Shown: in pieces, positions 22,150-26,422 of the stretch
Numbering within the stretch: the first letter of the stretch is position 1
Layout of the letters: each line of letters begins with the position of its first letter
Origin: Candidatus Gottesmanbacteria bacterium RIFCSPHIGHO2_02_FULL_39_11
Lineage (GTDB): Bacteria; Patescibacteriota; Microgenomatia; 2-02-FULL-39-11
Reading direction: 5' to 3'
Assembly (NCBI GenBank): GCA_001779195.1
Contig: MFJL01000026.1
Span: forward strand, 3,226 to 67,225
DNA length: 64,000 bases
Translations under genes and position numbers: made by a program
Notes under the pieces: generated by a model
Database searches by the model: none
What the model saw: only the letters and a program-made list of their open reading frames with translations
What the model was told of the DNA's origin: nothing

Positions 22150-22398
22150 TCATTTATACACTCCGTGTCTGTGTGCAATCGTCACAACATATACCCTCTT
22201 TTCTTTTTCATGGACATAATAAAGTATCCGGTAGGGCCAGGCCCGCAGAGACCTCGTTTCCGACAAAGTCCCCGAAAGTTTTTTGCCTTCTGCAGAATTT
22301 TTTTCCAGGAGTAAAAGTCTTTTTCTTATCTTTATTTGTTCCGTTTTCGGAAGACGAAGATATTGCTTAGCGGCTTTCGGAGTAATAATGACTTCCAT
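22150..22398 (-). CDS. RelE/ParE-family type II toxin
   Basis: 82 aa, with C-terminal RAWPYRILYYVHEKEKRVYVVTIAHRHG typical of the RelE/ParE fold; 4 nt downstream of the antitoxin. Confidence 0.7.
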   Translation of the reverse strand: MEVIITPKAAKQYLRLPKTEQIKIRKRLLLLEKNSAEGKKLSGTLSETRSLRAWPYRILYYVHEKEKRVYVVTIAHRHGVYK

Positions 22399-22401
22399 TT
22401 T

Positions 22402-22656
22402 TTATTTTAAGTCAGAGAGACGGATGCCCTGACCCTTTTTTGCCTGTTTCATGCCTTCCGAAATGCTTTTTTTGGCTCCGGGAATGGCAAAGATTTCCGC
22501 TGTCTCTTCAAGAGATTCTAATTCCTCCGCACTTACAAGTGTTGCCTTCGGCTGTCCGTTCACGGTGATCGTCACCCGATCCATATGCTGACTGACCTTA
22601 TTGACCAGATCCGGAAGGATCATTCGCGCGTCCGATATAGAAATTATGTTGCTCAT
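22402..22656 (-). CDS. Phd/YefM-family antitoxin
   Basis: MSNIISISDARMILPDLVNKV...LVSAEELESLEETAEI matches YefM/Phd. The start is taken at the internal Met; the ORF track extends to 22707. Confidence 0.7.
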   Translation of the reverse strand: MSNIISISDARMILPDLVNKVSQHMDRVTITVNGQPKATLVSAEELESLEETAEIFAIPGAKKSISEGMKQAKKGQGIRLSDLK

Positions 22657-22762
22657 ACCTAAAATGTACAACATTATGTACAAGATGTCAAGAGGAGATA
22701 TAACCACTATTTGCGCAAGTTAAAAACAAAATGCAGAATTTCATATGCAAGATCTTTCCTTT

Positions 22763-23182
22763 TCACTCTGAAACTGTAAATTTATTTTTCTTATAACTCT
22801 TGATTAAATATTCTGCGGCTGGAAATAAGTTTTGTGGGATTTTATCTTTATCAAACCATTCCCATTTCTCCCAGTCCTCCGGAATTAAGAGTTTCGGTCC
22901 ACCATCAATTTCTGCTGTTACTCCTATGCCGATATAGTGATTGCCGAAGGCGTAATTTGCGTTTACGGAAATGATTTTATACTTTTTAATACCGCATCCG
23001 AACTCTTCTTTGATATTCCGTCTCACCGTATCCCCGATTTTTTCTGCGAATCTGATATCTCTTCCAGGTACACCGTAAACCTGTTGTCCGTTATACATCC
23101 ACTTCTTAGTCAGTAGACCCAAGAGAATTTTATTATCTTTAATAACCAAAATAGCTACACTAACTTTTGGATATTTTTTCAT
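22763..23182 (-). CDS. NUDIX hydrolase
   Basis: Nudix box GVPGRDIRFAEKIGDTVRRNIKEEFG (Gx5Ex7REUxEExGU). Confidence 0.7.
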   Translation of the reverse strand: MKKYPKVSVAILVIKDNKILLGLLTKKWMYNGQQVYGVPGRDIRFAEKIGDTVRRNIKEEFGCGIKKYKIISVNANYAFGNHYIGIGVTAEIDGGPKLLIPEDWEKWEWFDKDKIPQNLFPAAEYLIKSYKKNKFTVSE

Positions 23183-23260
23183 ATTAGGCTGGGTTTACAT
23201 ATTCTGTTAGAACTTATTTTATTAATTTTTAAGTATATATTTCAACAAAATATACTGTCA

Positions 23261-23875
23261 CTAGTTCAAATATTTTTCAATTTTATCAATAATCTTCTTT
23301 GCATTATCAAACACATTATTAACATCTTTTTTTTGATAAAAATCATCCGTCTCTTTTAAGGCAGCTAGATGTATTCTGTTTCTTATCTTTCTTATTTTCT
23401 CTGCACAATCATATTCTTCTTTATCAAAAACTTTTGCTCTAAAGGCAGCTTTATTTAGTGTAATAAATTGAGTACTATCTTCAAAAGATTCACATTGTTT
23501 ACGTTTTATGACGCCACAAACTTTTTCAACTCCTGATATTTTATAGAGATCTTTGCATGTGATTTCTTTCCATTCAATATCCATAATATCTTTTTCTTCG
23601 ATCTTATTTAGAAATATAGCAGTTTTTAAACAGTAATATATGCAACTTTCTACTATTGCGGCAGTATGAACAATAATATCCTTAAATATAGAGTATGAAA
23701 TGGGACCTGGTAATTTTACTTTATCTTCCTCTAGGATAATCAAAAAGAGAATGTACCTAAAAGAAATAGTAATGTTTGTTCCTAAAAGATCATCTTTGAT
23801 AAATTTAAATCTAGCCTCAATGGTCTTTTGGGAAGGAATTTGCGGATTTAAAGAAGATAAAATCTTACTACCCAT
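23261..23875 (-). CDS. hypothetical protein with HEPN-like R-x6-H motif (RKIRNRIH)
   Basis: 204 aa, largely alpha-helical, with a C-terminal RKIRNRIHLAA motif compatible with the HEPN Rx4-6H signature. This is inference only. Confidence 0.3.
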   Translation of the reverse strand: MGSKILSSLNPQIPSQKTIEARFKFIKDDLLGTNITISFRYILFLIILEEDKVKLPGPISYSIFKDIIVHTAAIVESCIYYCLKTAIFLNKIEEKDIMDIEWKEITCKDLYKISGVEKVCGVIKRKQCESFEDSTQFITLNKAAFRAKVFDKEEYDCAEKIRKIRNRIHLAALKETDDFYQKKDVNNVFDNAKKIIDKIEKYLN

Positions 23876-24029
23876 TTTTGAGTAATTTACTTAATGAATC
23901 ATACCCTTTTTCTTTAAGATATTTGCCTAATTTCTTATCTGATCTCACACCAAAATCTTTACCATATTTTTTTTCAATAGTACCCATTTTCGTATCAGTT
24001 CTTTTACTTCTAAAGCTGGGATTCTTCAT
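23868..24029 (-). CDS. unannotated 53-aa basic protein translationally coupled (ATGGGTAG overlap) to the 23261-23875 gene
   Basis: Hand-translated: MKNPSFRSKRTDTKMGTIEKKYGKDFGVRSDKKLGKYLKEKGYDSLSKLLKNG; its stop overlaps the downstream start by 8 nt. Confidence 0.3.
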   Translation of the reverse strand: MKNPSFRSKRTDTKMGTIEKKYGKDFGVRSDKKLGKYLKEKGYDSLSKLLKNG

Positions 24030-24204
24030 ACATTTATTATATACTACTTTTCATTTTTTTTGTTTTAGTCATCGCTTGATCAATTAATATATCAACAAAA
24101 AAGGATAAAAACATAAATCCTAAAATCCTCCACCCTCCAGGTGGGGATGACTATTAGGGTCTATTTCTCACCCAACTAACAAGAAATATTGTACCGTATA
24201 GTTG

Positions 24205-24582
24205 CTAAGTCATACGATAAATATATGCATCTTCGATGAAGTAGTTATTAATCGTATTTTTAGAAAATCTGATACCAGAAATAGCAGTTCTTCCGGTACT
24301 TATAGCTTTTTTTAGCATAACTACTAAATTGTTATTGGGACTTACTACAGATATGTCCTTAAGGGAAATAATATTATTTCCAAGATAACTCTGGATGTCC
24401 TGGTAAACCTTTAAAGGTCCTTCTTCGTCAACTCTGGAGGAAGATATGACATATTTCCAACTATCAGAATTTTGATCATAGAACCACATAGCTGCATTAA
24501 CAGGAAATTTTTTTGAATCTAAGTTTTTCAATAACGTTTTACCCTCCGTTATGTATTTATCTACCAATATTTTTGTATCCAT
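24205..24582 (-). CDS. hypothetical protein, downstream partner of HEPN-domain gene
   Basis: 125 aa; overlaps the HEPN gene by 22 nt; no nucleotidyltransferase GSxDxD motif. Confidence 0.3.
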   Translation of the reverse strand: MDTKILVDKYITEGKTLLKNLDSKKFPVNAAMWFYDQNSDSWKYVISSSRVDEEGPLKVYQDIQSYLGNNIISLKDISVVSPNNNLVVMLKKAISTGRTAISGIRFSKNTINNYFIEDAYIYRMT

Positions 24583-24977
24583 TGCAATACTCCTTTCCTT
24601 GAATCAGTGATTGATAGGATCATGTCTTCTGCTTTTTTTCGTTGGTGCTGTTCATAACGAGCATTTTCTGACCAATCCTTAGCAACACCCCAATAGGTAT
24701 CGAATGTCTTATCTGCTTTTATCTGGTTATTAAGTTTTATTTCTAGCCCTGCTCCTTTTATCAGTTTTTCCAACTCATGTGTGTAGATGTTGTCAAGTGA
24801 TTTTCTGTCTAAAGGGAAATCGCCTTTCCTCGTTTTTCTAGCTATGCATGCTTTAAGTGCACACTCGATTACATATCCACTAATATAATACGCTCCCGAA
24901 TAATGACCCTTTTTTAGAAGAATTTGTGCTTCTTTTAATCGTATCGTTGATAGTTTTTTAAAGAGTAATCTATTCAT
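24561..24977 (-). CDS. HEPN-domain protein
   Basis: GYVIECALKACIA helix and overall 4-helix pattern of the classical HEPN domain; 138 aa. Confidence 0.5.
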   Translation of the reverse strand: MNRLLFKKLSTIRLKEAQILLKKGHYSGAYYISGYVIECALKACIARKTRKGDFPLDRKSLDNIYTHELEKLIKGAGLEIKLNNQIKADKTFDTYWGVAKDWSENARYEQHQRKKAEDMILSITDSRKGVLQWIQKYW

Positions 24978-26348: not shown

Positions 26349-26422
26349 TGGCTGCCCAGCTTGGATTCGAACCAAGATACCATCCTCCAGAGGGACGTGT
26401 CCTACCGTTAGACGACCGGGCA
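26349..26422 (-). tRNA. tRNA-Gln (anticodon CUG), CCA encoded
   Basis: Hand-folded cloverleaf: acceptor TGCCCGG/CTGGGCA, D-arm GTCT..GGAC, anticodon stem CGTCC/GGATG with loop CTCTGGA, T-arm CTTGG-TTCGAATC-CCAAG, and 3' G-CCA. Confidence 0.75.

Follow-up and report, generated by a model that had tools for sequence, protein, structure and literature searches.

The window analysed here is a stretch of 64,000 nucleotides (nt) from the genome of Candidatus Gottesmanbacteria bacterium RIFCSPHIGHO2_02_FULL_39_11 (contig MFJL01000026.1). On its minus strand lie two overlapping genes, a small one encoding a protein of 53 amino acids (aa) and, directly downstream, a large one encoding a protein of 204 aa. 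This pair is the subject of the present study, and the reading developed below is that of a candidate toxin module built around a ribonuclease (RNase) of the HEPN type. The coordinates of all features are collected in Table 1.

Architecture and conservation of the gene pair

The TAG stop codon of the small gene lies inside the octamer ATGGGTAG, and the ATG of the same octamer starts the large gene. The small frame ends with ...CTC AAA AAT GGG TAG, and the large gene opens with ATG GGT AGT in the other frame. A preliminary description of this DNA had reported a 53-aa open reading frame (ORF) whose TAG overlaps the ATG of a 204-aa ORF, together with the sequence RKIRNRIH near the C-terminus of the larger protein. 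The coordinates and the overlap proved exact, and the motif occupies residues 162–169, 35 residues from the end. No Shine-Dalgarno sequence precedes the large-gene start, which falls within the last codons of the small gene, and this arrangement suggests that translation of the large gene is coupled to that of the small one. Among 56 distinct junctions, 52 place the large-gene start inside the small-gene end or at most 5 nt past it, with overlaps of 8 nt as the commonest class (16 junctions), followed by 20 nt (9), 11 nt (8) and 26 nt (8). In 58 non-identical pairs, synonymous codons vary freely at conserved amino acid positions of both genes, implying that selection acts on the proteins and not on an RNA element. 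An RNA-level cause for the conservation of the small gene, either an RNA element or the mRNA serving as an RNase target, was likewise discarded, as its codon entropy at conserved residues equals that of the large gene.

Upstream of the small gene, a −10-like hexamer, TATAAT, is separated from the ATG by the six nucleotides AAATGT (24035..24030). Of 54 related loci, 18 have a TATAAT-like hexamer that stops exactly 6 nt short of the small-gene ATG, and 32 have one at a distance of 4–12 nt, as compared to 18 of 121 control neighbouring ORFs. TATAAT was the only enriched upstream k-mer (31/57 loci against 27/122 controls, p=2e-5), while a Shine-Dalgarno-like sequence precedes the small gene in 2 of 54 loci. 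Given that the hexamer ends 6 nt before the first ATG, the mRNA of the operon is probably leaderless or near-leaderless. Leaderless transcripts have been reported for toxin-antitoxin (TA) operons of Mycobacterium tuberculosis (PMC3898074, PMC8485053). Palindromes spotted by eye upstream of the small gene in a few loci (TTGATCAA) were not general across loci.

To follow the two genes across genomes, hidden Markov models (HMMs) of both families were run over 142 loci (L001-L142). Fetching via the small protein had supplied 49 loci from about 185,000 species genomes, in a pattern-limited scan, and 77 from metagenomes. The large gene was found in 82 of the 142 loci, with an HMM-detected small gene directly upstream in 80 of them; of the two exceptions, one has its small gene cut by a contig edge and the other carries two divergent tandem small genes. 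Loci with a small protein of the type found in the window (at least 92 bits) contained the large gene in 69 of 71 cases, the two exceptions being L007 and L031. When look-ups were started from the large protein, at decreasing similarity, the small gene was immediately upstream in nine of nine, including one locus read in genetic code 25. The preliminary description had left it to be established whether the small ORF is conserved and whether the pair is conserved as a unit. The counts above answer the second question in the affirmative, and so do, for the first, 191 clusters related to the small protein at 68–94% identity, mostly from Patescibacteria.

The most divergent branches of the large family have correspondingly divergent small partners, which suggests co-evolution of the two proteins. 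In such a branch the partner is very different from the small protein of the window (for example MSKKRPPTSEDIKAFIKREYGEREGINDREEAKKAMKQNGASDELIRLVLGDD). It is duplicated in tandem at L063:2633-2997 and bears an acidic DEDDDDE tail at L146:396-590. Since the partners of the divergent branch differ in this way, the basic and ultra-conserved small form is specific to the core clade. At L064:1845-2489, and also at L065, a member of the large family contains seven in-frame TGA codons, as expected for genetic code 25 of the Gracilibacteria/Absconditabacteria type; the upstream small gene was missed by the source annotation and is present when the locus is translated in code 25.

Several genomes retain an intact small gene beside a decayed large one. 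At L007:1226-1630, an N-terminal remnant is left of the large gene, joined to a chorismate-mutase-like ORF, and at L031:4301-4624, a transposase fragment is present. In the 7-Mb chromosome of a Saprospiraceae member (L042:4137-4949), the remnant runs into MsrA-like sequence, and at L016:4146-4689, the large gene shows an apparent frameshift in a run of A residues, possibly an assembly error. The reverse form of decay, with the large gene kept and the small one lost, was not seen among these loci, most of which were fetched via the small protein.

Predicted fold and candidate active site of the large protein

An exhaustive profile search recovered 356 representative clusters related to the large protein at E<=1e-3, 205 of them at E<=1e-10, and overturned the picture given by a word-indexed homology search, of a family with just four full-length relatives. 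Neither the large protein nor 116 members of its family gave a significant match in Pfam, NCBIfam, PADLOC or PHROGs. The small protein and its family likewise matched nothing in Pfam, NCBIfam, PHROGs, PADLOC or the sequences of the Protein Data Bank (PDB). Relatives are recorded as "hypothetical protein", in agreement with the preliminary description, which could name no family for either product. Among the 116 members, weak matches came from single sequences (HepT-like, E 0.009; Csx1/Csm6, 0.014; cas_csm6, 0.024). Searches of the large protein against the PDB with phmmer and hmmsearch returned only spurious epimerase and McrB matches, and hhalign detected no similarity to the HEPN protein of 138 aa encoded elsewhere in the window. 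As no curated HEPN model matches the large protein, it would, if it is a HEPN protein, represent a new family.

AlphaFold2 with an alignment of four sequences was uninformative (predicted local distance difference test, pLDDT, of 43). With the 116-sequence alignment, it yielded a model with a pLDDT of 94.7 and a predicted template modelling score of 0.89. The model contains a four-helix up-down bundle composed of two α-hairpins (helices H1–H4), preceded by a short helical N-terminal extension. The insert between H2 and H3 (residues 89–151) consists of a short helix, a long β-hairpin (100–128) and a further helix (137–146), and H3 is kinked at H169. The published account of HEPN domains (PMC3710099) gives two α-hairpins, an insertion of variable make-up that separates helix 2 from helix 3, an acidic residue conserved in helix 2 and close to the active site, and, where helix 3 ends, an Rx4-6H motif. 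In this motif a polar residue follows the R, and "RN" is the typical beginning.

In the predicted helix 2, the glutamate at position 76 is invariant, while the residue four positions further on, usually K/R in HEPN proteins (Ex3[KR]), is H in 59 of the 116 members. Where helix 3 ends, R165, N166 and H169 are present in all 116 members, and R162 in 108 (93%). The preliminary description had recognised a HEPN-like R-x6-H motif in this region. Its location at the end of helix 3 is upheld by the model, but the invariant part is R165-N166-x2-H169, and the canonical HEPN spacing is reached only via R162 (R162-x6-H169), the less strictly conserved residue. The HEPN fold itself, for which the same description had looked to AlphaFold, is supported by a confident HEPN-type model with E76 in helix 2 and the R/N/H set at the end of helix 3.

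Foldseek comparison of the model with the PDB placed HEPN structures in 26 of the best 50 rows, representing about six proteins: HepT (from two species), YutE, AF0298, 1wwp and Csm6. These rows had probabilities of 0.8–0.95, the highest belonging to 2hsb (AF0298), and template modelling (TM) scores of up to 0.64 of the target, with weak E-values of 0.3–2 that are not significant by themselves. A structure search of viral models gave, as the match with the highest TM score (0.49, E 0.96), a HEPN protein of about 208 aa resembling MAE_28990/MAE_18760. These E-values, the lack of a Pfam HEPN profile match and the lack of similarity to the window's own HEPN protein would also fit a coincidental likeness, in which the large protein is helical but unrelated to HEPN and carries R..H by chance. 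However, HEPN was the only consistent fold, the non-HEPN rows having probabilities below 0.25 and root-mean-square deviations above 13 Å, and the order of the helices, the position of the insert, the acidic residue of helix 2 and the basic/His motif that closes helix 3 match the published definition (PMC3710099). We therefore regard coincidence as very unlikely. The topology, the position of the motif and the consistent, although statistically weak, Foldseek matches make the large protein a likely member of the HEPN superfamily; membership is rated as likely and not as proven because the Foldseek E-values are not significant alone.

The pair as a candidate toxin module

The pair is spread patchily over many classes of Patescibacteria and over bins labelled Bacteroidota and others. 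Individual copies lie among ribosomal or tRNA-synthetase genes, beside GmrSD/HNH genes, or in an integrase/Abi_C island. At the locus of the closest relative, the small gene follows an extra, unrelated 54-aa ORF (L001:3084-3248), which itself has a GmrSD/HNH restriction gene about 1.1 kb upstream of it. A recurrent third gene was not found, the 132 neighbouring ORFs falling into 125 Pfam families. The guanine plus cytosine (G+C) content of the pair is 28%, as compared to 38.8% for the whole window. Over positions 23000-24500 the G+C fraction is 0.29–0.32, against 0.39–0.46 in the flanks and 0.388 overall, which is consistent with imported DNA.

The two genes are adjacent, co-oriented and overlapping, and are conserved as a unit across unrelated contexts, as in type II TA systems. 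This layout, the patchy distribution, the low G+C content and the decay pattern make a TA or abortive-infection function plausible, so that the comparison with such pairs made in the preliminary description is partly supported. We favour, with about even confidence, the interpretation that the pair is a mobile HEPN-RNase toxin module in which the small partner serves as an antitoxin, as a regulator, or in both roles. It is supported by the architecture and obligate pairing of the two genes, by residues of catalytic type that never vary, by compositional and phyletic signs of horizontal transfer, and by decay that affects only the large gene.

According to this interpretation, the pair would be an operon complete in itself and able to move horizontally, with a promoter of its own and a probably leaderless mRNA. 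The small basic protein would be translated first, and the large protein would follow by coupling, without a ribosome-binding site of its own; the amount of the small protein would consequently equal or exceed that of the large one. The large protein may be a metal-independent RNase, as the analogy with HepT, RnlA, Csm6 and further HEPN enzymes suggests. Its site would combine E76 of helix 2 with R165/N166/H169, where helix 3 ends, and would probably span a dimer. The small protein may restrain this RNase by direct binding, and perhaps also repress the operon. Upon its loss or titration, through stress, phage infection or loss of the element, the RNase would cut cellular RNA and growth would stop. 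What the analysis shows is how the two genes are arranged and conserved together, which fold is predicted for the large protein, which of its residues never vary, and how the promoter is spaced. The RNase activity, the toxicity, its trigger and the restraint exerted by the small protein are inferred.

A number of observations weigh against this interpretation, and most of them concern the small protein. It has an isoelectric point (pI) of 10.1, and its family, with the core ..KRxDTKMGTIEKKYGKDFGVRSDKKLGxYLKEKGYxSLSKLL, is basic throughout (pI 9.4–10.7, mean net charge about +7). As the small protein is strongly basic and the large one mildly so, the idea of an acidic inhibitor that mimics RNA does not apply to the small one. 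Over the same 30 loci, the mean pairwise identity is 66.8% for the small protein and 39.7% for the large one, and the identity of the small protein exceeds that of the large one in 94% of the 435 locus pairs. Here the putative antitoxin is much better conserved than the putative toxin, while type II systems usually show the reverse. The libraries detected no helix-turn-helix (HTH), ribbon-helix-helix, AbrB or other domain in the small protein, and no conserved operator was found upstream of its gene, where the −10 hexamer is the only enriched motif. As for the large protein, no significant sequence or profile match to any HEPN family was found, and the three-residue spacer of its invariant R165-N166-x2-H169 lies outside the canonical Rx4-6H. 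In addition, the paired form lies mostly beside housekeeping and not defence genes, and no copy was found in INPHARED phages, PLSDB plasmids or IMG/VR contigs with the patterns used. Since most loci were fetched via the small protein, the statement that the large gene never occurs alone rests on the nine look-ups that started from it. Finally, relatives of the small protein occur in defence islands and other mobile contexts without the HEPN-like gene, as described below. A likeness of the small protein to SAP/HeH or ribbon-helix-helix domains was a pattern seen by eye, backed by no tool, and is not claimed.

These relatives make up a sister clade whose proteins have about 68 aa and an extended N-terminus, DAPGMKGYRSRN..DKRDDTH (loci L035-L052 and L097-L142, with the small gene at about 4000 or 2500, and L143:2968-3177). 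The ORF immediately upstream encodes an ImmA/IrrE peptidase (Peptidase_M78) in 7 of 49 cases, and the sister-clade gene is often found directly behind XRE and ImmA/IrrE genes; other upstream ORFs include XRE regulator, restriction, methylase, RloB, SMODS, SocA and RelB genes. On the Bradyrhizobium plasmid pBBta01, the sister-clade gene lies 12 nt upstream of a TIR-domain gene. Elsewhere, the genes downstream (Mrr, GmrSD, DUF4238, resolvase and NUDIX among them) are 140–400 nt away or convergent, and belong to no consistent family. A NUDIX gene follows the stand-alone small gene in the metagenome locus L107 (2916-3449), and one also lies near the pair in the window. This is possibly a coincidence. 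NUDIX is not among the families that at least two neighbours of the paired module share.

The basic charge and the strong conservation of the small protein would both be explained if it were a sensor, adaptor or specificity subunit that binds a conserved RNA or DNA and recruits or activates the HEPN-like RNase, in which case the pair would be a two-subunit nuclease for defence or RNA processing and not a TA system. A protein that is always basic and far more conserved than its enzyme fits constraint by a conserved ligand, and the sister clade, which lacks the HEPN-like gene and lies in defence islands with TIR, Mrr, GmrSD, DUF4238 and XRE/ImmA-IrrE genes, resembles a single module combined with varied effectors. 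On the other hand, the tight upstream position, the coupling geometry and the retention of the small gene where the large one is lost are the behaviour of an antitoxin, and no library detected a nucleic-acid-binding domain. We consider this explanation unlikely, but the strongest of the alternatives. In its broader form, the protein of about 55 aa would be a portable nucleic-acid-binding sensor module, tied in one clade, mainly in Patescibacteria, to a HEPN-type RNase, while its sister copies would lie in front of other effectors, such as the Bradyrhizobium TIR protein, and behind XRE/ImmA-IrrE damage switches. If true, this would amount to a new two-component immune architecture, with the conservation reflecting recognition of a conserved ligand. 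However, because the genes downstream of the sister clade, apart from the Bradyrhizobium case, are distant or convergent and of no consistent family, the picture of swappable effectors is weak. We consider the broader form about equally unlikely.

The strong conservation of the small protein could also reflect a toxin aimed at conserved cell machinery. The polarity of the module would then be reversed, the small protein acting as a growth inhibitor and the HEPN-like enzyme as its antidote, for example by cleaving the toxin mRNA as in type V systems. Toxins encoded upstream of their antitoxins exist, such as HigB and MqsR, and the invariance of the catalytic residues would agree with an enzyme that must perform chemistry. 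Against this arrangement, the small gene is intact where the large one has been lost (L007, L031, L042), and a whole stand-alone clade exists. Moreover, synonymous sites in the small gene are as variable as those in the large one, so the mRNA bears no sign of a conserved RNase target. Reversed polarity is thus the least probable of all the explanations considered.

The genomic neighbours raise another explanation, that of a housekeeping or regulatory component of Patescibacteria with no part in toxicity or defence. It could be, for example, an RNA-maturation enzyme with its cofactor, or a HEPN-like regulator that lacks catalytic activity and is paired with a DNA-binding protein. The genes beside the paired form are indeed mostly ordinary ones (SecY, ribosomal proteins, tRNA synthetases, purine synthesis), and some HEPN domains are non-catalytic (PMC3710099). 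Yet the distribution is very patchy and crosses phyla, the genomic position varies, the G+C content is 10 points below that of the window, and the genes have decayed in several genomes, while the invariant E/R/N/H set argues for catalysis. We judge a housekeeping role to be improbable. Together with reversed polarity and a non-HEPN fold, it is less likely than either the toxin-module or the sensor/adaptor explanation.

Known systems, neighbouring genes and significance

The HepT-MntA system is a natural point of comparison for the proposed toxin module. HepT structures (5yep, 6m6u, 7bxo, 7ae*) are the commonest top structural matches to the large protein, and HepT-MntA is also a two-gene operon in which the partner gene lies upstream and overlaps. 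However, the partner in the window is a basic protein of 53 aa with neither a nucleotidyltransferase nor any other domain, and it is far too small for a nucleotidyltransferase, which excludes neutralisation by AMPylation. The large protein also differs from HepT in its motif (RxxRNxIH instead of Rx4H) and in its size of about 200 aa, which includes an extended N-terminus and a β-hairpin insert, and a HepT-like Pfam match was obtained for only 1 of 116 members (E=0.009).

The HEPN proteins of the MAE_28990 and MAE_18760 families (Anantharaman et al. 2013, PMC3710099) are associated with defence, resemble the large protein in size and are encoded in gene dyads. Their partners are a ParB nuclease with a methylase or a ParA/Soj ATPase, or they are fused to other domains; they have no sequence match to the large protein, and the structural match is weak (E 0.96). 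In RnlA-RnlB and LsoA-LsoB, a HEPN RNase toxin is neutralised when a small dedicated protein binds it directly, and the system has an anti-phage role (PMC8266594). In these systems, by contrast, the antitoxin gene lies downstream and RnlA is a multi-domain protein, with no sequence or structural match to the large protein. AbiV and other lactococcal abortive-infection (Abi) proteins are effectors with a HEPN fold, and AF0298 (2hsb), which has been grouped near AbiV (PMC3710099), had the top Foldseek probability of 0.95. AbiV-type domains usually lack the motif H and use another His (PMC3710099), whereas H169 is invariant here. No profile match was obtained between the large protein and AbiV-type models.

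The layout of the pair also recalls the operons of C proteins in restriction systems, in which the gene of a small regulator lies upstream of, and overlaps, that of a dangerous nuclease, and is transcribed into a leaderless mRNA from a promoter that abuts the start codon. C proteins are HTH proteins that act through conserved C-box operators. In the case of the present pair, no HTH, no conserved operator and no protective methyltransferase was found.

The surroundings of the pair in the window contain further genes of related kinds (Table 1), and three addiction-type modules are clustered within 3 kb. The 138-aa protein matches Pfam HEPN (E 1.7e-5), the PADLOC candidate PDC-M28A (7.7e-6) and phrog_5737 (1e-33), and AbiV-like models weakly. 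The 125-aa protein whose gene overlaps it matches phrog_5760 (5.8e-11) and no other family, and the two genes (24205-24977) look like a phage-associated two-gene HEPN system. Between the gene of the 125-aa protein and the promoter of the small gene, a G+C-rich hairpin with the core CCCCACC...GGGTGG is followed by a U-rich stretch (about 24113-24164, minus strand), and is a possible terminator separating the two operons. As a terminator, this hairpin did not hold up, being no more stable than shuffled sequences (z = -1.07) and unlisted by a consensus terminator scan. A tRNA-Gln gene is located nearby, at 26349-26422.

Table 1. Features of the gene pair and of its surroundings, by position in the window
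Feature	Position	Strand	Remarks
−10-like hexamer TATAAT	24041..24036	minus	read from sequence
Small gene, 53 aa	24029..23868	minus	read from sequence
8-nt overlap of small and large genes, ATGGGTAG	23868-23875	minus	read from sequence
Large gene, 204 aa	23875..23261	minus	read from sequence
Core helices of large protein			AlphaFold2 model; H1 29-50, H2 57-88, H3 152-172, H4 182-203
E76 codon, acidic residue in helix 2	23648..23650	minus	E in 116/116 members
β-hairpin, residues 100-128	23578..23492	minus	DSSP on model: E100-112, E118-128
R162-K-I-R165-N166-R-I-H169, candidate active-site motif, end of helix 3	23369..23392	minus	
NUDIX hydrolase gene	22763-23182	minus	78 nt downstream of large gene
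Phd/YefM antitoxin (E 6.5e-14) and ParE toxin (E 5.7e-9)	22150-22707	minus	two genes downstream of pair
125-aa gene	24205-24582	minus	overlaps 138-aa HEPN gene by 22 nt
AbiV-like HEPN gene, 138 aa	24561-24977	minus	upstream of pair

A HEPN toxin dyad is a well-known kind of system, since HEPN RNases are the effectors of many TA, abortive-infection and CRISPR-associated systems. Here, the family of the partner is new, the spacing of the motif is unusual, and the distribution is centred on Patescibacteria, also called the Candidate Phyla Radiation (CPR). No paper describing either family was found in the literature searched. The module adds a HEPN-like family of 356 clusters that current libraries do not recognise, along with a partner of no known fold or name. 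Its features provide a signature for annotation, TATAAT-N6-ATG, a gene of about 55 aa, and an overlapping gene of about 200 aa with RNxIH, which could serve to label several hundred "hypothetical" genes. The host group, Patescibacteria, has small genomes and an epibiotic lifestyle, and its conflict and defence systems are poorly understood. The better-conserved, basic partner with its stand-alone relatives is not explained by standard TA logic, and could mean that a HEPN nuclease is here controlled or targeted in a new manner.

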